From an uncultured Brevinematales bacterium (lineage in GTDB: Bacteria; Spirochaetota; Brevinematia; Brevinematales; CAYRWR01), in the NCBI GenBank assembly GCA_964428015.1, contig CAYRWR010000014.1:8306-72305 (forward strand): 64,000 nt of DNA, read 5' to 3'. A program made the position numbers and the translations under genes. Position 1 is the stretch's first letter. Every line of letters begins with the position of its first letter. Below the pieces are notes generated by a model, which saw only the letters and a list, made by a program, of their open reading frames with translations, ran no database searches and had not been told where the DNA came from. Shown piece after piece: positions 2,565 through 64,000 of the stretch.

Positions 2565-3908
2565 ATGTCACAGTCACATCATATTAGCCTGGATGCTGAT
2601 TTTTTAGATATCATTCGCCTGGGTGAATCCAGGTTTGATTCCCCGCTTAGATTTTATCCCGAAGATGACATGGATTCCGGTTTTGTGGATGATAATGCCC
2701 AGGTTCTACTTTCTGTAGATTATAATGATATGAAGGCTCTGTCTGACTCGGGTAAAGCCTGTCCTGTTGTGGAAAAAGCCGGCCCCCGTAAAAAACTCTA
2801 CTTTGAACCCGGACAGACTACTTCTGCCATCGTGACCTGCGGTGGATTATGCCCCGGGCTGAATTCAGTGATCAGAGCTTTGGTCATGACTTCTTTTTAC
2901 CGTTATCAGAATAAACGTATCCTGGGTATACCTTATGGTTTCGCGGGATTTATCCCTGAACTGGGCCATGAAATTGTAGAGCTCACACCTGACATGGTAG
3001 ACACCATCAACAGCAAAGGCGGAACCATACTGGGTAGTTCCCGGGGTGATCAGGACCGCAGCCGCATTGTAGACCGTCTGGAGGAATTAAAAGTAGATAT
3101 CCTCTATACCATTGGTGGTGACGGTACCCAAAAAGGTGCCTGGGACATCATTCAGGAAATTGATCGGCGTGGGTTGAAGATTGCGGTAGTGGGACTACCT
3201 AAAACCATTGATAATGACATTAATTATATCGATAAATCCTTCGGGATGGAAACAGCCTACTCCATCGCGGTAGAGGCTATCGCATCAGCACATACCGAAG
3301 CCCGCTCCTACCCCAATGGCATCGGACTGGTCAAGCTCATGGGTAGAGAGTCCGGTTTTGTCGCTGCTTATGCCAGCCTGGCTTCTAATGAGGTCAACTT
3401 TTGTCTGGTACCGGAGATGGACTTTGACCTGGATGGGCCCAACGGATTTCTCCATCATCTGGAAGCCCGTCTTCGTCTCAGGGGACATGCTTTAATCGTA
3501 GTAGCTGAAGGTACGGGACAGCAGTTCATGGGCGGGCCGGATGGAAAAGACGCCTCCGGCAATAAAAAGCTGAAAGACATTGGTCTGTTTCTCAAAGAGC
3601 AGATTCAGGACCACATGACCCGGCAGGGACTGGATCATACAGTTAAATACATAGACCCTTCTTATATGATACGCAGTACAGGCCCTATTCCTACAGATTC
3701 CATTTTCTGTACGCAGCTGGCTCAGATGGCCGTACATGCGGGAATGAGCGGGCGTTCCGGCCTGGTAGCAGGATATATCAATGGAGAATTTACCCATTTA
3801 CCCATGAAAGTCGCTACCGGGCAGCGAAAGAAGATAAATCTGTATTCCCAGTTATGGACTTCAGTGATTGAGGCCACCGGGCAGCCGCTCTCCATGAAAA
3901 ATGAATAA
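2565..3908 (+). CDS. pfk: 6-phosphofructokinase, long PfkA-family type (phosphoryl donor probably ATP)
   Basis: 447 aa with PFK motifs TCGGLCPGLN, TIGGDGTQKGA and GLPKTIDNDI. Confidence 0.85.
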   Translation: MSQSHHISLDADFLDIIRLGESRFDSPLRFYPEDDMDSGFVDDNAQVLLSVDYNDMKALSDSGKACPVVEKAGPRKKLYFEPGQTTSAIVTCGGLCPGLNSVIRALVMTSFYRYQNKRILGIPYGFAGFIPELGHEIVELTPDMVDTINSKGGTILGSSRGDQDRSRIVDRLEELKVDILYTIGGDGTQKGAWDIIQEIDRRGLKIAVVGLPKTIDNDINYIDKSFGMETAYSIAVEAIASAHTEARSYPNGIGLVKLMGRESGFVAAYASLASNEVNFCLVPEMDFDLDGPNGFLHHLEARLRLRGHALIVVAEGTGQQFMGGPDGKDASGNKKLKDIGLFLKEQIQDHMTRQGLDHTVKYIDPSYMIRSTGPIPTDSIFCTQLAQMAVHAGMSGRSGLVAGYINGEFTHLPMKVATGQRKKINLYSQLWTSVIEATGQPLSMKNE

Positions 3909-3970
3909 TAGCTCTGGATTTATTATCTGAATTTAACTATAATATATTGGATCAGAACAAGGATAACAAA

Positions 3971-4999
3971 ATGGATAAAATTTTAATTGTTGATGATGAA
4001 GCTGATATAGAACTCCTCATTCGCCAGCATTTCAGAAAAGCCATCCGCGAAAAGCAATTCGACTTTGTCTTCGCCGGAAACGGAGTGGAAGCCCTGGAAG
4101 TACTGGACAAGCACACCGATGTAAACGTCATACTCTCAGATATCAATATGCCTAGAATGGATGGCTTGACCCTTTTGAATCATCTGGCAGAAAAAGAAGA
4201 GATTCGCAGGACTGTAATCATTTCCGCTTATGGAGATATGAAAAATATCCGTACTGCCATGAACCGGGGTGCTTTTGACTTCCTGATTAAACCTATCGAC
4301 CTGGAAGATCTGGAGCTCACTCTGCGCAGGACCATACAGGAAGTATCTGAGTTGAAACGCAGCCAGTCTGAACGGCTGGAATTAATCAGAGAATTGGACA
4401 ATACTCAAAAGGAAATCATTTTTACCCTGGGTGAAGTGATTGAAGTCCGATCCAAAGAGACTGGTAATCATGTACGCAGAGTAGCTGAATATTCCCGCCT
4501 GCTGGCTGAAAAATATGGTCTGGATAAGGAACAGGCGGAGATAATCCGTCAATCTTCACCTCTACATGATATTGGTAAAGTGGCAATCCCGGATTCAATC
4601 CTAAACAAACCGGGAAAACTCACAGACACTGAATTTGAAGAAATGAAGACCCACACCACCATCGGACATCAGATTCTGCAGAAATCAAAACGGAATATTT
4701 TGAAAATGGGTGCCATTATCAGCCTGGAACATCATGAAAAATGGAACGGAAAGGGATATCCCCGCGGATTACAATCCCAGGACATCCATATTTTTGGTAG
4801 AATTACAGCCGTGGCTGATGTTTTTGATGCTCTGGGATCAGAACGTGTGTATAAGAAAGCCTGGCCCCTGGATCAGATCATGGATCTGTTTAAAAAAGAA
4901 AAAGAGTCTCATTTTGACCCTGACCTGGTCAGTATTTTATTTGATAACCTGGATGATTTTATTGCTATTAGAGACAGATATTCTGATCCTGTAGAATGA
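3971..4999 (+). CDS. Response regulator with receiver plus HD-GYP domain (putative c-di-GMP phosphodiesterase)
   Basis: REC N-terminus (KILIVDDE...SDINMPRMDG...KP) followed by HDIGK and HHEKWNGKGYP motifs. The track starts at a TTG at 3947. I prefer the ATG at 3971, which is preceded by AAGGA. Confidence 0.85.
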   Translation: MDKILIVDDEADIELLIRQHFRKAIREKQFDFVFAGNGVEALEVLDKHTDVNVILSDINMPRMDGLTLLNHLAEKEEIRRTVIISAYGDMKNIRTAMNRGAFDFLIKPIDLEDLELTLRRTIQEVSELKRSQSERLELIRELDNTQKEIIFTLGEVIEVRSKETGNHVRRVAEYSRLLAEKYGLDKEQAEIIRQSSPLHDIGKVAIPDSILNKPGKLTDTEFEEMKTHTTIGHQILQKSKRNILKMGAIISLEHHEKWNGKGYPRGLQSQDIHIFGRITAVADVFDALGSERVYKKAWPLDQIMDLFKKEKESHFDPDLVSILFDNLDDFIAIRDRYSDPVE

Positions 5000-13994: not shown

Positions 13995-16058
<2,064 letters not shown>

Positions 16059-16075
16059 GAGCGTGTTTGTGTTCA

Positions 16076-16107
16076 GGACCTCTCACGGAGACACGGAAGC
16101 ACGGAGG
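16076..16107. repeat. Left inverted repeat (three tandem CACGGAGN octamers)
   Basis: GGACCTCTCACGGAGACACGGAAGCACGGAGG. 27 of 32 positions match the reverse complement of 17424-17455 in my hand alignment. Confidence 0.8.
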
Positions 16108-16156
16108 GGTTGGTGAAGGTCGTTGGCGCTGGTTGGTGACATAGCAGTAGTTATAG
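16108..16156 (+). other. Left cassette boundary: two GGTTGGTGA direct repeats followed by the core-like GTTATAG
   Basis: GGTTGGTGA occurs at 16108-16116 and 16131-16139. GTTATAG at 16150-16156 is the exact reverse complement of CTATAAC at 16684-16690. Confidence 0.45.
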
Positions 16157-16180
16157 GAAATTTGGAATTAGGAGTTGAAA

Positions 16181-16675
16181 ATGGATTGTATTGCTGTTAT
16201 TAGTGACTTAATTCTTCCGTTAGGTGCAATAACTCTTTCTATTATTGCAATGGTTAAATCTACAAAAACAAATGACATCTCACAAAAGGCTGATTTTCTA
16301 TCAGGAATACTTTCACAATATCGCACTAATGAAATGGCTGACTCAATTATTTTCCTATGGGATAAATTCGAAGATTCAAATAAAAATACTGAAAATTTGG
16401 TACAAAAATATATTGAATTATATAAACAGGATAAAAGAAATGCGTTTCATTTACACAGAAGAGTGGTATCTCAATTTTTTCATTTAGTATCTGTATATTT
16501 TAAAAATAATATAATTGATGTAAGTATTTTAAAGCAAATTTGGACTAAGGATGATTTAGGTATCATTGTGAAAATATTAATCCCAATAGAAAAAGAATTA
16601 AGTCTTATGCTTGGACATGATGATTTAACTAAAAAAGTTGAATTAATGCAAAATTTTTATAATGGATTGGATTAG
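16181..16675 (+). CDS. Cassette 1 hypothetical protein with an N-terminal TM helix
   Basis: AGGAG lies 6 nt upstream of the ATG at 16181 (the track uses the TTG at 16175). The ORF is AT-rich and K/N/I-rich. I recognise no family. Confidence 0.6.
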   Translation: MDCIAVISDLILPLGAITLSIIAMVKSTKTNDISQKADFLSGILSQYRTNEMADSIIFLWDKFEDSNKNTENLVQKYIELYKQDKRNAFHLHRRVVSQFFHLVSVYFKNNIIDVSILKQIWTKDDLGIIVKILIPIEKELSLMLGHDDLTKKVELMQNFYNGLD

Positions 16676-16683
16676 TAAAATTC

Positions 16684-16737
16684 CTATAACTAGGACTCAG
16701 CCACCACTAACGCGGCGCTGAGTCGATTTCGTTAGAC
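16684..16737 (+). other. attC-like recombination site 1
   Basis: CTATAAC-TAG-GACTCAGC-(15 nt)-GCTGAGTC-GATTTC-GTTAGAC. It has inverse-core and core-like ends with an internal 8-bp inverted repeat. Confidence 0.6.
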
Positions 16738-16760
16738 GTAATTACAATTAAGAGGATATT

Positions 16761-17225
16761 TTGAGTTTACAACATGCAATAAAATTCGGTAAACAGCTTA
16801 ATTCTTTTAAATCGAAAAGTGAAGCAGAAAAGTATTTTCAAGAATATAACGAGCATTATCTACATAAAATTCATGAATTAGCCTTAAAATACCAAATCGA
16901 ATTGAATAATCAACCAGAAAGTATTAAAGTGTTGGAGAAATGGTATTTTGATTTAATAGATCAGGATTTCAAAAGATTCCCAATAAATATTCAAGAATTT
17001 GAAATATGTATGGCTATGTATTTTTTACATGTAGCTGTAACAAATAATCCTGAAGCAGAATATTTAGTATCGGAATATCCGTTTGTTAAAGGAAAATATG
17101 AATTTGGAGTTAAATTAGGATTACTCACTTATAATTTAGCTCGATGTACAGACCATTATAAAACACCTAGCAATAAGAGACAGCAAGCCCTGTATAAAGC
17201 ATATAAACAATATTTTAAGAAATAA
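16761..17225 (+). CDS. Cassette 2 hypothetical protein
   Basis: TTG start 4 nt after AGAGGA. 154 aa, AT-rich and predicted helical. I recognise no family. Confidence 0.55.
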   Translation: MSLQHAIKFGKQLNSFKSKSEAEKYFQEYNEHYLHKIHELALKYQIELNNQPESIKVLEKWYFDLIDQDFKRFPINIQEFEICMAMYFLHVAVTNNPEAEYLVSEYPFVKGKYEFGVKLGLLTYNLARCTDHYKTPSNKRQQALYKAYKQYFKK

Positions 17226-17243
17226 TAAACGGAGTAACACTTC

Positions 17244-17297
17244 GTCTAACTAGGACTCAGCCGCCACTAACGCGGCGCAGTGCCACGTTCGTTAATG
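17244..17297 (+). other. attC-like recombination site 2
   Basis: It starts with GTCTAAC (a perfect RYYYAAC) and ends with GTTAATG. 42 of 54 positions are identical to site 1. The L'-side arm is degenerate. Confidence 0.55.
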
Positions 17298-17374
17298 GAA
17301 ATTACACAATAGCAAAAATTGAAACAGAAAATGGAAAAATGCAATCCATTGTCTTTCCCAACGAAAACCACGGC

Positions 17375-17410
17375 AAATAACCTGGACCCATGCCGCCGGC
17401 TGAGTCCTTA
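17375..17410 (+). other. Degenerate third attC-like half-site
   Basis: AAATAAC-CT-GGACCCATGCC-GCCG-GCTGAGTCC resembles the left and right arms of site 1, but no GTT core follows. GCCGGCTGAGTCC is also a 12/13 inverted match to 17253-17265. Confidence 0.3.
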
Positions 17411-17423
17411 CCTACTCTAAAAT

Positions 17424-17455
17424 CCTCCGTGTCTCCGTGCCTCCGTGAGAGACCC
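17424..17455. repeat. Right inverted repeat (three tandem octamers, reverse orientation)
   Basis: CCTCCGTGTCTCCGTGCCTCCGTGAGAGACCC, the partner of 16076-16107. Confidence 0.8.
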
Positions 17456-17515
17456 AGCACATAGGCCCATCACGCTATGTGCTGTAAAATTATCCACCTT
17501 CATTTCAATAGTATA

Positions 17516-18730
17516 CTACTGCTTATAAGTCTCCAGGAAATCGGCCAGTCTCTCCATTACCTGCTTCAAATCTTCCATATTGGGCAAAAAGACCAGGCGG
17601 AAATGGTCAGGACTGGGCCAGTTAAAGCCTGTACCCTGTACCAGCTGGACATGTTTGGCCAGCAGGAAATCCAGGATAAATTTCTGGTCATCCACAATAT
17701 TAAAGCGTTTAATATCCACCTTGGGGAAGACATACAGGGCCCCCTTGGGTTTAACACAGCTCAATCCCGGGATTTGGTTGATTGCCTCCCAGGCATAGTT
17801 GCGTTGTTCATAGAGCCGTCCGCCTTCTTTAATGAGATCCTGTATACTCTGATACCCTCCCAAAGCGGTCTGGATACCGAATTGAGCGGGAACATTGGAG
17901 CACAGTCTCATATTAGAAAGAATATTCAAACCTTCGATATAATCCCGGGCATGACTCTGATCTCCCGAAACTACCATCCAGCCGGCTCTAAATCCAGCAG
18001 CCCGGTAATTTTTGGACAGTCCACCGAATGTAATAAATAGAATATCATCAGCCAGAGTAGCCAGAGGCGTATGCTCCAGGCCATCATAGAGGATCTTATC
18101 ATAAATCTCATCAGAAAACAGAATAAGACCGTTTTCCTGGGCTATTTTTACTATAGCCTGGAGTATACTTTTGTCATATACAGCCCCGGTGGGATTGTTG
18201 GGATTGATGATGACTATACCTTTGGTGTTCTGGGTGATTTTTGACCGGATATCGGCTACGTCCGGCTGCCAGTCATTCTGTTCATCACACACATAATGTA
18301 CAGCCTTTCCACCTGACAGATTTACAGCTGCTGTCCACAGGGGATAATCCGGCGATGGGATGAGTACTTCATCCCCCGAATTCAGCAGTCCCTGCATAGA
18401 CAATACAATAAGCTCAGAAACTCCATTACCGATAAATATATCGTTAACTGTGACATCACGGATGCCCAGCTGCTGATAATACTGCATCACCGCTTTACGC
18501 GCGCTGAAGATGCCTTTGGACTGAGAATAGCCCTGTGCCTGATTAAGATTAATGATCATATCATGGAGGATTTCATCCGGGGCGTTAAAGCCAAAGGGGG
18601 CAGGATTGCCGGTGTTGAGTTTAATAATCTGGTAACCCTCTTCTTCCAGCCGGTTGGCTTCTTCCATGATGGGGCCTCGGATTTCATAGCACACATCATC
18701 CAGTTTACGCGATTTTCGGATCTCTTTCAT
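17516..18730 (-). CDS. alaA: Class I PLP aminotransferase, AlaA-like glutamate-pyruvate aminotransferase
   Basis: The N-terminus KSRKLDDVCYEIRGPIMEEANRLEEEGYQIIKLNTGNPAPFGFNAPDEI closely parallels E. coli AlaA. A SKNYRAAGFR segment corresponds to the PLP-lysine region. Confidence 0.85.
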   Translation of the reverse strand: MKEIRKSRKLDDVCYEIRGPIMEEANRLEEEGYQIIKLNTGNPAPFGFNAPDEILHDMIINLNQAQGYSQSKGIFSARKAVMQYYQQLGIRDVTVNDIFIGNGVSELIVLSMQGLLNSGDEVLIPSPDYPLWTAAVNLSGGKAVHYVCDEQNDWQPDVADIRSKITQNTKGIVIINPNNPTGAVYDKSILQAIVKIAQENGLILFSDEIYDKILYDGLEHTPLATLADDILFITFGGLSKNYRAAGFRAGWMVVSGDQSHARDYIEGLNILSNMRLCSNVPAQFGIQTALGGYQSIQDLIKEGGRLYEQRNYAWEAINQIPGLSCVKPKGALYVFPKVDIKRFNIVDDQKFILDFLLAKHVQLVQGTGFNWPSPDHFRLVFLPNMEDLKQVMERLADFLETYKQ

Positions 18731-18763: not shown

Positions 18764-19165
18764 TTAGTTTTTTACAGCTGCCAGTATCAGGTCCACGGCA
18801 ATAGCCAGGACACTGAGAATAAAGATATTGGCATAATTCCACATCTCTTTAGAGCGGTCGATAGATTGTAAAAGATAAAGTACAGCCTTATTATCTTCTT
18901 CGCTTAGGTTTTGCCTGCTTTCTATCTTTTTTAGAAGATCATTCTCTCTAATTACCCCTTTTCTTTTCCGGGCTATCAGAAAGCGATAGAAAAAGAAAAG
19001 TACATAACCAATAACACCGAAATACCATACCGGCCTGACCCATTGAGGATACAGCCTGTAACAAATCATCAGTACACGGATTGACAAAGCGGACAGCAGC
19101 CCCAGAACAAAGAAGCCATTGACTATGATGGGTGGCAAAGTGGTAGGGTCAGAGTTCTTTTTCAC
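18764..19165 (-). CDS. Small integral membrane protein
   Basis: 133 aa with 3-4 predicted TM helices. Last gene of a four-gene minus-strand cluster. Confidence 0.55.
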   Translation of the reverse strand: MKKNSDPTTLPPIIVNGFFVLGLLSALSIRVLMICYRLYPQWVRPVWYFGVIGYVLFFFYRFLIARKRKGVIRENDLLKKIESRQNLSEEDNKAVLYLLQSIDRSKEMWNYANIFILSVLAIAVDLILAAVKN

Positions 19166-19551
19166 TTTTTGTCTACCTGATCATACCTGACCATATATAA
19201 ATTTTCACCGGTATCGATGAGTAAACGGATATGATTCTCATCTTCCAGTTCATAAGTTGCTGTGAGCTGAACCTGCCTGATATCGTAAAAATACCGGCCT
19301 TCCACTTTCCATTTACCGGTTGCCAGGCTGGAAGTAAACACCCCGTTCTGGTATCTACCGGTGGTAAAAGTCCCATCCTGCCTAAGCTCTACTACCATCC
19401 TATCCTGTACAGCAGCCTCAAAGCTCTGGTCTGAAATATACCAGAGACCCACCCATTGATCCCTGGGTTTTATATCAGCTTTGACAGTAGGCGCGCAGGA
19501 TGTAAAGGTACTGAAAAGAAGCAGGCTGAATAGGAAAAAACGGAATCGCAT
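19162..19551 (-). CDS. Small lipoprotein, paralog family member 3
   Basis: I chose the start at MRFRFFLFSLLLFSTFTSC (lipobox). It shares the W..S..SFE.A motif with the two upstream genes. Confidence 0.6.
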   Translation of the reverse strand: MRFRFFLFSLLLFSTFTSCAPTVKADIKPRDQWVGLWYISDQSFEAAVQDRMVVELRQDGTFTTGRYQNGVFTSSLATGKWKVEGRYFYDIRQVQLTATYELEDENHIRLLIDTGENLYMVRYDQVDKK

Positions 19552-19552
19552 T

Positions 19553-19930
19553 CTATTTTCCTTTGTATTGTGAAATAGGTACCAAATATAATATTTTCCC
19601 CTGACGGTCCCATTTCTGATTTTCACCCTCTAAAAATACATCTGCCAGAATTGTGTCCTCATCTTCTTTTGTAATCTTCAGTTTTCCCTTTTCGAAGACC
19701 CAGGTCCTTTGATCCACCTTTTCCTGTTGAGAATTGATTCCGGTTATTTCCATGATACCATTGGGAAGAACATTGACCTGATAATCTCCTTCTTCCCGGG
19801 CATGATCAAAACTGGTCTGGGATGCTACCCATTTTCCCAGTATCGGGATATTCTCTGACTTTACGGAACTTCCCTGACAGGAATATAATGTTACAAATGC
19901 CAGTATTATACTAAAATAAATTGTTTTCAT
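19553..19930 (-). CDS. Small lipoprotein, paralog family member 2
   Basis: MKTIYFSIILAFVTLYSC lipobox, plus ILGKWVASQTSFDHAREEGDY matching its neighbours. Confidence 0.6.
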   Translation of the reverse strand: MKTIYFSIILAFVTLYSCQGSSVKSENIPILGKWVASQTSFDHAREEGDYQVNVLPNGIMEITGINSQQEKVDQRTWVFEKGKLKITKEDEDTILADVFLEGENQKWDRQGKILYLVPISQYKGK

Positions 19931-19940
19931 CGACCCTCTC

Positions 19941-20333
19941 CTAACCTGCGCCTACTATGAGGAATAGTTTTTCCCCATCCTGATTGGTCCAGATCATACG
20001 TCCTTCTTCTACTATTTCAATGGTGGCTTCTATTACCAGTTCCCCTTCAGAGTACAGATTAAGTGTGTTACCATCCAGGACCCAGTTAAAAGTCATCTGG
20101 TCTTCTTCACCGTTATCGGTGAGTTTAAAAAACCGTAAAACGCCTTCTTCATTGACTTCCACATATTCCCCTGAAGTCTCCGCGTCTTCGAAACTGGATT
20201 CTGATGTTCCCCAATACCCCAGAATATACTCTGCGGTAGGCATTTCATCATTTGTCTCAATATCATCATCCGCGTAAAGCGCGGCAGCGTTCATAGCCAG
20301 TATCATGAACAAGGGTACCAGGATTTTTTTCAT
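19941..20333 (-). CDS. Small secreted protein, paralog family member 1
   Basis: A signal peptide, then ILGYWGTSESSFEDAETSGEY. GAGGAG lies upstream of the ATG. Confidence 0.6.
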   Translation of the reverse strand: MKKILVPLFMILAMNAAALYADDDIETNDEMPTAEYILGYWGTSESSFEDAETSGEYVEVNEEGVLRFFKLTDNGEEDQMTFNWVLDGNTLNLYSEGELVIEATIEIVEEGRMIWTNQDGEKLFLIVGAG

Positions 20334-61753: not shown

Positions 61754-62320
61754 TCTGCTCCTGACTGTTATGGATATAACTTAATCATAGCGCCAGGAAT
61801 TGTCCATTTTTTTGTAACGGGAGATTCATCCCACTACCCAAAACCAGGGGACAGCCCGCCGCAGGCGTTAAGATGACGGCACCGGGGACATGCCGAAAAG
61901 CCAGCCATCCTGAAGTCGGCAGAATCAGATACGGTTCATCTAAAGTATAGCGTCCAAACCGTAAGCCAGGCTGAGTGGTACTGTGTAGACATCTGCCGAT
62001 CGGTCCACGCCCGGGCCCCTACCGCCGCACCGGGGGCACCACCCTGACAAAACCTGCCGCAGCGGAAGCCGCCTCCATGTCAATCAAGAGCGGTGAAAAT
62101 GGGGAGTCTCCCCACCGGCTCATTCGGTCCAGTCTGATACCCGGCTATCCTGAGGAGATACCCTTCCTTTTCCCCCAAAACCCGGAACAGTCCTGTCCGT
62201 ACTTTGACGAAAGCGGCAGGATAAGCTAAAATGTTTGACTGGAAGATTCGGACAGGCTAACCACCGACTATTCCTGAATTTATCATAAATACCTGCAGTG
62301 TATTTACCAAGGAGAATCCC

Positions 62321-63268
62321 ATGTACAGAGAACAGATCAAGGTACTCGACTGTACCATCCGTGACGGCGGCCTCATCAACAATCATGACTTTGACCTCCG
62401 TTTCGTACGCGAAGTCTATAAAGCGGTTTCCACCTCCGGGGTGGACTATATCGAACTGGGCTATAAGAATTCCAAGAACCTGTTTTCTGAGAAAGAGTAC
62501 GGCCCCTGGAAATTCTGTGAAGACGATGTGATCAAAAAAGTAATTGAAGGACAGGAATCCGATATCAAGATCTCCACCATGGTGGACATTGGCCGCGTGG
62601 ACATGGACGATGTCAAGCTGTGCGCCGACAGCCCGGTGGATATGATGCGGGTAGCCTGCTACGTCAAGGATATCGACAAAGCCATCGCCATGGTCAATGA
62701 ATTCGACGCCAAGGGCTATGAGACTACCATCAATATCATGGCCATCTCCAAGGACCACGGCCCCGAGCTGGATGAAGCCCTGCAGCAGGCAGAAGAAGAA
62801 TCCAAAGCCAAGGTCATCTACCTGGTGGACTCTTTCGGCTCCCTGTACCAGGAAAATATCGAAGACCTGGTCAAACGGGCTAAAAAAGTCCTCAAGACCA
62901 AAGAAGTGGGCTTTCACGGCCATAACAACCAGCAGCTGGCCTTCAGCAATACCATTGAAGCCATCATCCACGGCGCTAACTTTTTGGACGGTACCGTGTA
63001 CGGCATCGGTCGTGCCGCCGGCAACTGTACCCTGGAGCTCCTGCTGGGCTTCCTCAAGAATCCTAAATTTGACCTGCGTCCGGTACTGGACCTGATCTCC
63101 AAGGAATTCCTGCCCCTGCGGGAAAAGATCGAATGGGGCTACATCATCCCCCACGCTATCGCCGGAATGATGAATGAACACCCCCGCGACGCCATTGCCT
63201 TCAGAGAAGGCCCGGACAAAGACAACTACCGTGCTTTTTACGAAAAGCTGACCTCCAGCGCGGTTTAA
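62321..63268 (+). CDS. HMGL-like/DRE-TIM metallolyase-family aldolase
   Basis: VLDCTIRDGG N-terminal motif, and ...GFHGHNNQQLAFSNT metal-ligand His pair. AAGGAG lies upstream. Confidence 0.7.
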   Translation: MYREQIKVLDCTIRDGGLINNHDFDLRFVREVYKAVSTSGVDYIELGYKNSKNLFSEKEYGPWKFCEDDVIKKVIEGQESDIKISTMVDIGRVDMDDVKLCADSPVDMMRVACYVKDIDKAIAMVNEFDAKGYETTINIMAISKDHGPELDEALQQAEEESKAKVIYLVDSFGSLYQENIEDLVKRAKKVLKTKEVGFHGHNNQQLAFSNTIEAIIHGANFLDGTVYGIGRAAGNCTLELLLGFLKNPKFDLRPVLDLISKEFLPLREKIEWGYIIPHAIAGMMNEHPRDAIAFREGPDKDNYRAFYEKLTSSAV

Positions 63269-63274
63269 ATCAGT

Positions 63275-63907
63275 ATGGACAGGGAAGCATTCCGCACCCT
63301 GCCTGTCATGGGGATAGTCAGAGCACCGGGCAGTATCAATACCGCGGCTCTGGCTGAAGCAGTCCTGGGGGCGGGTCTCTCCACCATAGAGATCACCATG
63401 AACACCCCCGACGCCCCTACCCTCATCAAAAAACTCAAACAGGATGCCGGCCCCGCCCTCGCGGTGGGTGCCGGGACCGTCCTGGATCTCCCGCAGATGC
63501 ATCAGGCTCTGGACGCCGGAGCCGGCTTTATCGTCATGCCCATCATCGTAGACGCGGTGATGGAATATTGTGTCAGCCATGATATCCCGGTCTTTCCCGG
63601 CGCTTTTGCCCCCCAGGATATCTATCGGGCCCATCACATGGGAGCGACCATGGTCAAGCTCTTCCCCGCCAAATCACTGGGACCGGTCTATATATCCGAG
63701 CTCAAAGGGCCCTTTCCCGATATCCCGCTCATCGCCGTGGGGGGAGTCACCCCCGCCAATATCGGCGAGTTTTTCCAGGCGGGTGCCGCCGCGGTAGCCG
63801 TAGGAGGCAGTGTCTTCCGCCGGGAGTGGCTGGAACGGGGCGACTATGCCAGCATCGGGACGGCGCTGGGGGCACTGATAGGAGCCTACCGGGAGATGCT
63901 CCACTGA
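63275..63907 (+). CDS. eda: KDPG/KHG aldolase (Eda family)
   Basis: IEITMNTPDA, GAGTVLD, FIVMP, PGAFAPQDI and VKLFPA motifs in canonical order. 210 aa. Confidence 0.8.
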   Translation: MDREAFRTLPVMGIVRAPGSINTAALAEAVLGAGLSTIEITMNTPDAPTLIKKLKQDAGPALAVGAGTVLDLPQMHQALDAGAGFIVMPIIVDAVMEYCVSHDIPVFPGAFAPQDIYRAHHMGATMVKLFPAKSLGPVYISELKGPFPDIPLIAVGGVTPANIGEFFQAGAAAVAVGGSVFRREWLERGDYASIGTALGALIGAYREMLH

Positions 63908-63975
63908 AGAGACAGGGTGGGTGGAGTCTGGACTGAGACGACTATGTCTGTTTCAGCAGACGGAGCGGGAATAAA

Positions 63976-64000
63976 TCTCTCACGGAGGCACAGGGGGCAC
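63976..64000. repeat. Third copy (truncated by the window edge) of the CTCTCACGGAGGCAC... octamer repeat
   Basis: TCTCTCACGGAGGCACAGGGGGCAC, 70 nt downstream of the eda stop. Same core as 16081-16107 and the reverse complement of 17424-17450. Confidence 0.6.

Follow-up and report, generated by a model that had tools for sequence, protein, structure and literature searches.

The window (the whole stretch of DNA that was analysed, 64 kb) belongs to the metagenome-assembled genome (MAG) of an uncultured Brevinematales bacterium (contig CAYRWR010000014.1, assembly GCA_964428015.1); the placement of the host comes from LigA homologs, which are named as LigA of Brevinematales. The spacer at 16059-17515 separates two convergent genes, ligA (+ strand) and an aminotransferase gene (- strand), and a first-pass annotation made from the letters of the window had proposed that the insert it contains is an array of integron cassettes without an integrase. 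In our reading, 16151-17297 is very probably such an element, i.e. a two-cassette integron array lacking an integrase (attC sites grouped in a cluster that has no integron integrase, CALIN) in a Brevinematales chromosome. Its features and the two flanking genes are listed here (nt, nucleotides; aa, amino acids; ORF, open reading frame).

14022-16058 (+): ligA, NAD-dependent DNA ligase (Pfam DNA_ligase_aden, 2.6e-87, and other ligase domains), transcribed toward the cassettes
16151-16731 (+): cassette 1 (581 nt), consisting of ORF1 and attC1; boundaries from G|TT and from a 5' end that is complementary to its own R'' over 10 nt
16181 (16175 with the longer start)-16675 (+): ORF1, 164 aa (166 aa with the longer start), with a hydrophobic N-terminal segment
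16684-16737 (+): attC1, R'' CTATAAC, L'' GACTCAGC(C), L' GCTGAGTC, R' GTTAGAC; covariance-model match at 16678-16741
16732-17291 (+): cassette 2 (560 nt), consisting of ORF2 and attC2; 5' end complementary to its own R'' over 8 nt
16761-17225 (+): ORF2, 154 aa, TTG start behind AAGAGGA, with the PF27472 'YwmA' family label from precomputed annotation
17244-17297 (+): attC2, apparent hybrid and probably defective, GTCTAAC...GTTAATG; 5' half of the GGACTCAGCC type, 3' half GCGCAGTGCCACGTTC GTTAATG
17516-18730 (-): class I/II aminotransferase (called alaA in the first-pass annotation; Pfam Aminotran_1_2, 1.9e-52), convergent with ligA

By composition, the DNA in the middle of the spacer is foreign. 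The G+C content (GC) of the insert is 26-31% (28-31% for the cassette parts, 26-27% for the two ORFs) compared with 51% in ligA and 46% in the aminotransferase gene; the ORFs lie about 20 points below the flanking genes, and GC is 58% at 16059-16150 versus 28% in cassette 1. Both ORFs are on the + strand and are followed, 8 and 18 nt past their stop codons, by a 54-nt site. The two sites are identical at 42 of 54 positions, or at 53 of 66 if extended to 16681-16746 and 17241-17306, and their 32-nt core (TAACTAGGACTCAGCCRCCACTAACGCGGCGC) occurs in the window in these two copies only and in none of 100 shuffles. In all these respects the first-pass annotation was accurate: the AT-rich insert between the convergent gene ends, the coordinates of the ORFs and sites, the site identity on recounting, the R''/R' heptamers (CTATAAC...GTTAGAC and GTCTAAC...GTTAATG) and the 8-bp inverted repeat GACTCAGC/GCTGAGTC inside attC1 are present as it described them.

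A scan of 185,579 genomes (one per species) with the core sequence found a single locus, which lies in another Brevinematales MAG (CAZIAD010000081.1; hereafter L001). Positions 1-3600 of L001 are an array of at least seven cassettes that extends past the contig start and in which 7 sites of 54-57 nt stand between unrelated short ORFs, all on one strand. The L001 sites share a 5'-terminal ..YAAC and a 3'-terminal GTTA..., and the AAC and GTT box ends are invariant in all eight family members from outside the window. R and L stems make up the consensus fold of the family, and three pairs of the L stem show compensatory changes. One of the L001 sites, site b, is 92% identical to attC1.

A covariance model of this family (R1) was built from the 7 L001 sites and one site from a further contig, L005 (described below), and the window was searched with filters off. 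Such a search had been suggested in the first-pass annotation, as had one for further copies of the site. With R1, which is family-specific and differs in this from the general model of IntegronFinder, only two significant places were found in 64 kb, namely attC2 (17238-17301, 58.8 bits, E 3.8e-12) and attC1 (16678-16741, 54.6 bits, E 4.3e-11), with the next best match at E 4.7; at least seven more copies are those of L001. The model is strand-specific (55-85 bits on the ORF strand versus ≤15 on the opposite strand), and no match was obtained on the syntenic loci of relatives. Judged from their sequence, the two sites of the window belong to the attC family used by Brevinematales cassette arrays. 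Known attC sites are about 57-141 nt long; the present ones, with 54 nt from box to box (60-64 nt with the extended R stem), are at or just under the lower end of that range. Rfam returned nothing relevant to the attC sites (whole window at gathering thresholds; 15950-17600 at E≤10), and a scan of viral contigs for the attC core found none. Six metagenome-contig loci obtained in a scan with AACTAGGRCWCAGCCGCCA were rejected as chance matches in GC-rich coding DNA.

IntI places its crossover between the G and the TT of the core, so that the 5' end of a cassette is complementary to its own R''. Both cassettes carry this footprint: GTTATAGGAA (16150-16159) is complementary to TTCCTATAAC at attC1 over 10 perfect nt, and GTTAGACG (16731-16738) to CGTCTAAC at attC2 over 8 perfect nt, which confirms the co-variation of boundary heptamers that had been claimed and extends it to a greater length. 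For the eight cognate pairs of the window and L001 the means were 8.9 perfect nt and 13 matches of 16, versus 5.0 perfect nt and 8.7 of 16 for 82 non-cognate pairs; the footprint is statistically distinct from non-cognate pairs. The agreement at the boundaries is true co-variation, because the variable positions differ between cassettes (TATAG, TAGAC, TAGCT, TATAT, TAGAT). The crossovers that joined the cassettes lay at G|TT. Members of this family have an R stem 1-3 nt longer than the canonical 7-nt box; the similarity of the two sites past their cores, which had been raised as a caveat, is therefore expected.

The bottom strands of the sites were folded, another of the checks suggested at first, and the outcome was divided. 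The bottom strand of attC1 forms a hairpin with a 13-bp stem and one bulged G (-11.2 kcal/mol, z -2.84), and that of L001 site b forms a full R plus L hairpin (-16 kcal/mol, z -4.4). The expectation failed for attC2, whose bottom strand has no attC fold (z -1.0): its L stem is broken, with L'' GGACTCAGC facing L' GCAGTGCC. The 3' half of attC2, GTGCCACGTTC GTTAATG, is of a type that pairs in L001 sites a and d with GGGCAC (GGGCACAGCC). From these sequences attC2 seems to be a hybrid of two attC types, most simply explained as the scar of a deletion between two attC sites. Since attC2 is a hybrid with a broken L stem, we infer that the array is now decaying.

The same cassette with an intact site is found in L005, a contig from a sister sample (SRR13617047) that equals the window from 16357 to 17280 and diverges inside attC2 after GCGGCGCAG. 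There, cassette 2 carries the canonical 3' half GCGCAGAGTCGATTGCGTTAGGT, i.e. GAGTCGATTGC GTTAGGT, which pairs with GGACTC, and it is followed (L005 888-1807) by a third cassette encoding a secreted ankyrin-repeat protein for which no homolog above 39% identity was found. The hybrid form of attC2 is also seen in an independent contig, L004, whose overlap with L005 is confined to a 34-nt shared core. The assembler k-mer, which we take to be k=31, is shorter than this core, and a chimeric L005 is possible for that reason; the L005 join, or the exact number of cassettes at the locus, could depend on assembly. The L005 version may represent strain variation at the locus, another array or a k-mer chimera.

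Between the array and the aminotransferase gene the insert continues, and the whole of it is bracketed by an inverted repeat of 38 nt (16070-16107 and 17424-17461, 82%) that the first-pass annotation had not mentioned. The corresponding features are:

16070-16107 (+): left arm, of (CACGGAGN)x3 type, with the core 16080-16107 = CTCTCACGGAGACACGGAAGCACGGAGG; 82% complementary to 17424-17461
16108-16150 (+): recipient-side GC-rich sequence with two copies of GGTTGGTGA and four GTTRGYG/GTTATAG units, up to the G of the first G|TT
17292-17423 (+): remnant with no ORF (39% GC), separating attC2 from the right arm
17424-17461 (-): right arm, with the core 17424-17451, on the - strand = CTCTCACGGAGGCACGGAGACACGGAGG

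The remnant contains, at 17397-17408, a 12-nt inverted copy of the attC L'' (CGGCTGAGTCCT). A degenerate third attC site had been suggested there (17375-17410) and is rejected: it gave no R1 match at E≤10 on either strand and folds no better than shuffles (z about -0.8).

An uninterrupted version of the locus exists in L012, the closest available relative (LigA 70% identical), where the stop codons of ligA and the aminotransferase gene are 22 nt apart and synteny is kept on both sides; the comparison of syntenic spacers that had been suggested thus yields an empty junction. In L013, from the MAG that also holds the L001 array (LigA 64% identical), ligA is followed by other genes and there are no cassettes. 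The LigA proteins of the window's genome and of the L001 genome agree at only 64%, against 92% for attC1 and its L001 counterpart; the two genomes share a pool of cassettes and attC sites despite their deep divergence.

These data bear on the possibility that no integron is involved at all, the 54-66 nt repeat being a palindrome or terminator resembling repetitive extragenic palindromes (REP) and the ORFs an ordinary small operon. The shortness of the sites (54 nt), the lack of an attC fold in attC2, the failure to find an integrase and the fact that the homologs of ORF2 elsewhere do not stand beside attC sites would all be compatible with it. However, the repeat occurs in 64 kb only after the two foreign ORFs, it punctuates the one-strand array of unrelated ORFs with co-varying boundaries in L001, and the nearest relative lacks the two ORFs, whose GC is 20 points lower, at its syntenic site. 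We regard this explanation as scarcely credible and as already largely refuted.

A separate question is raised by the bracketing repeat. Its core consists of three CACGGAGN octamers behind a TCTCA/TCACC prefix, and a third copy lies at 63977-64000 (+) and continues in an overlapping contig, L014. A scan of IMG/VR with CACGGAGNCACGGANNCACGGAG gave 44 contigs (L021-L064) of 39-70% GC, compared with a chance expectation of ~0.2 matches (our own estimate, for about 10^11 bases). Two of these contigs show 27-base identity to the right arm of the window; in L021, bases 17424-17450 (- strand, 27 nt) are matched exactly by TCTCACGGAGGCACGGAGACACGGAGG. In the viral contigs the motif is often found in inverted pairs, either as hairpins with loops of 15-30 nt or 115-150 nt apart, and in many cases another repeated octamer makes up a second block behind it. 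Its start is frequently 5-30 nt past the end of a long ORF on the same strand; a same-strand gene closely precedes it in about 16 viral cases as well as in all three window copies. No protein family recurs beside it among the 44 viral loci. Rfam has no match for the CACGGAG motif (whole window; 15950-17600 and L021 at E≤10), no paper containing the sequence was found in a literature search, and cultured phage genomes gave no match and plasmids only marginal ones. At 17456-17485, on the way from the right arm to the stop codon of the aminotransferase gene, there is a hairpin with a 10-bp stem (CAGCACATAG(GCCCATCACG)CTATGTGCTG); it shares bases with the arm's outer end, and nothing equivalent exists on the left. 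On the far side of the third copy, just past 64000, L014 has at 3803-4120 an AT-rich ORF (about 35% versus 60% GC) for a 105-aa membrane protein directly after the motif, and no attC was found beside this ORF in the 88 nt before the contig end.

The two GGTTGGTGA repeats next to the left arm had been likened to the integrase-binding direct repeats of attI sites. Their positions (16108 and 16131) hold, but the attI-like reading probably does not: in the viral contig L024, four copies of GTTGGTAA come after CACGGAG x3, at the offset occupied by GGTTGGTGA in the window, and the repeats are better understood as the second block of the (CACGGAGN)x3 element. The whole of 16108-16150 is thus probably the second repeat block of the CACGGAG element and not a demonstrable attI. 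Recognising an attI from its sequence requires the cognate integrase.

The element could be either the local landscape in which the cassettes landed or their target or vehicle. In the form in which the cassettes were the cargo of, or were targeted to, a small hairpin element resembling a miniature inverted-repeat transposable element (MITE), ending in the (CACGGAGN)x3 arms at 16070-16107 and 17424-17461, the second view would account for a 38-nt, 82% repeat that brackets the insert exactly and for an empty site in L012 that has neither arms nor cassettes; the only other copy in the region (63977-64000, L014) is also followed by an AT-rich, foreign-looking ORF, and inverted motif pairs 15-150 nt apart are present in many IMG/VR contigs. 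Yet there is no target-site duplication beside the arms (flanks AGCGTGTTTG and TAGGCCCATC) nor a second copy of the unit in the window, and the element does not qualify as a MITE or a terminal-inverted-repeat transposon; no transposase or other family recurs at the 44 viral loci, the position of the motif after same-strand genes (about 16 viral cases and the 3 window copies) has the look of a 3'-end or intergenic signal, G|TT recombination fully explains the cassette boundaries, and no attC lies within 88 nt of the AT-rich ORF that follows the third copy. A MITE-like origin is decidedly unlikely on this evidence. The wider proposal that the inverted (CACGGAGN)x3 arms are a target or vehicle for foreign DNA, and that the array is nested inside them for that reason, we consider unlikely; if true, the element would have to be counted as a hotspot or carrier, not recognised before, of integron cassettes outside attI. 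The local-landscape view is favoured because target-site duplications are lacking and G|TT crossovers suffice to explain the cassette boundaries.

With respect to the integrase, no tyrosine recombinase (PF00589) was found by Pfam among the 44 ORFs, which make up nearly all the coding capacity of the window; the absence of intI reported in the first-pass annotation was thus borne out. The genes are closely spaced for 10 kb in both directions (gaps under about 120 nt), which leaves no room there for a relic of intI. The definition of CALINs and their proposed origins, including the loss of intI, are given in a study of 2016 (PMC4889954), and by this accepted route (PMC4889954) a complete integron would once have stood at the locus, intI and attI having been deleted in situ and the distal cassettes left behind. 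Decay is indeed seen (the hybrid attC2 and the ORF-less tail), and an attI relic might be seen in the four GTT-core units of the 43 nt that precede the first G|TT. Against this, CACGGAG blocks are also followed by GTTGGTGA units in viral contigs that are unrelated, no gap exceeds ~120 nt within 10 kb, no recombinase fragment is present among the ORFs, and the flanking genes are intact and syntenic with those of L012 (22-nt spacer). With a mere 92 nt between the ligA stop and the first crossover and with synteny intact, loss in situ is very unlikely.

We instead propose that the cassettes were put where they are by an integron integrase working in trans, whose gene lies elsewhere in the genome or which was there only transiently. 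The folded bottom strand of an attC site would have recombined with a double-stranded site other than attI in the spacer between ligA and the aminotransferase gene, i.e. by insertion into a secondary site of the attG type. The array would then have decayed: attC2 would have exchanged its 3' half with another attC type, most simply through a deletion between two attC sites that took out downstream cassettes; the ORF-less remnant comes after it. As attC1 still looks competent, the action of a trans-supplied IntI would extend at most to cassette 1 and attC1. Insertion into genomic attG sites with a G|WT crossover has been described, and small CALINs were proposed to arise in this way (Loot et al., 10.1101/2022.09.11.507474). 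The left G|TT junction, the empty site and this published proposal would fit such an origin, but it is unproven, because no integrase has been seen in the lineage, the target is not reconstructable and the right junction is degenerate. At the left end, G|TT agrees with attG-type insertion (GWT) but is uninformative.

The classification as a CALIN, as distinct from its origin, is supported by a site family validated in L001, the R1 matches, the G|TT footprint, the empty L012 junction and the lack of a recombinase. The two + strand attC matches are 560 nt apart, within the 4 kb used to delimit a CALIN, and the marks of a complete integron are lacking (no intI, and no + strand promoter-like site at 15800-17700). 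Several points nevertheless weigh against the array as we read it. No integrase was seen in the window or beside the L001 array, which leaves its contig, and the connection of the attC family with IntI consequently comes from structure and footprint only. The right junction with host DNA is not a clean G|TT, and the join between cassette 2 and the aminotransferase gene falls within the 34-nt shared attC core, so the array could be longer, either in reality or in some strains (L005). L012 is distant and its 22-nt spacer cannot be aligned to the flanks of the window, for which reason the original target site is not reconstructable. The inverted copies of a repeat that bracket the insert could mean that it came by a different vehicle. 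Finally, R1 includes the attC2 of L005, which shares its 5' half with the attC2 of the window.

In RefSeq complete genomes, 1362 of 2961 CALINs (about 46%) have two attC sites (10.1101/2022.09.11.507474); a two-site CALIN is a common, ordinary kind of element and changes no concept. With other CALINs the present one shares two same-strand attC sites 560 nt apart, promoterless ORFs, the lack of intI nearby and its small size. It differs in that it was found with a family-specific covariance model, in that one of its two sites is apparently a structurally defective hybrid, and in its Brevinematales host; a literature search returned no paper linking Brevinema and integrons and no integron report for the order Brevinematales. 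Compared with the attG insertions of Loot et al., the location outside attI in a chromosomal intergenic spacer, the G|TT (GWT) left junction and the uninterrupted site in a relative are the same, whereas here the event is inferred, its target is not reconstructable and the right junction is degenerate. What the locus provides is a natural case of cassettes residing outside an integron, in a spirochaete order about which little is known and with an empty site at the syntenic place; it speaks for the view that small CALINs originate through genomic insertion and decay afterwards. It also shows that Brevinematales have short attC sites of a family of their own and share a pool of cassettes. Sedentary chromosomal integrons with homogeneous attC sites include the Vibrio cholerae repeat (VCR) arrays of Vibrio and the integron of Treponema denticola. 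As in these, a similar attC family recurs across unrelated ORFs, with at least seven cassettes in the L001 array; in contrast, the window has two sites and no integrase, the attC sites are unusually short (54-57 nt) and the R stem is 1-3 nt longer. MITE-flanked integrons, or integron mobilization units, have reportedly been described by Gillings and by Poirel, both in 2009. There as here, inverted copies of a short repeat stand on both sides of the array, but the arms at this locus are about 30-50 nt long, show no target-site duplication, enclose no integrase and consist of a widespread intergenic motif, not a recognised MITE. That undescribed 27-nt motif, conserved between the host and very diverse viral contigs, is the more promising, if incidental, lead.

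The cargo proteins gave little information. For both ORFs, Pfam, PADLOC and NCBIfam had nothing above threshold, and a PDB sequence search returned nothing. ORF1 had only a sub-threshold Pfam match to DUF4760 (E 0.031) and weak, sub-threshold and uninformative matches in PADLOC/NCBIfam (best E about 0.01-0.03); exact look-up of its 164-aa and 166-aa versions found no record, and its AlphaFold2 (AF2) model was unusable (predicted local distance difference test score, pLDDT, of 48). The AF2 model of ORF2 reached a pLDDT of 78, and a fold search with it gave no significant PDB match. PF27472 is annotated on five homologs of ORF2, all at ≤40% identity, and no attC sites adjoin these homologs in their contexts (L017-L020, L065). 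No + strand promoter-like or terminator-like site was detected between ligA and ORF1, nor any + strand promoter-like site across 15800-17700. Because the array is co-oriented with ligA and no promoter or terminator precedes the cassettes, they are probably expressed by read-through from ligA. Among the cargo of L001, a GNAT acetyltransferase-like ORF and a methyltransferase-like ORF were recognised by eye.

Two further observations concern the surroundings. The contig is compositionally heterogeneous, in that local GC is ~60% at 62000-64000 (HMGL-like and KDPG-aldolase genes) versus 44% for the whole window. Downstream of the aminotransferase gene, at 18764-20333 (- strand), four small ORFs follow in a row (133, 154, 125 and 130 aa) without a Pfam match; several of their N-termini resemble signal peptides or those of lipoproteins, the ORFs have a paralog-like look, and comparable small genes come after the aminotransferase gene in L012.

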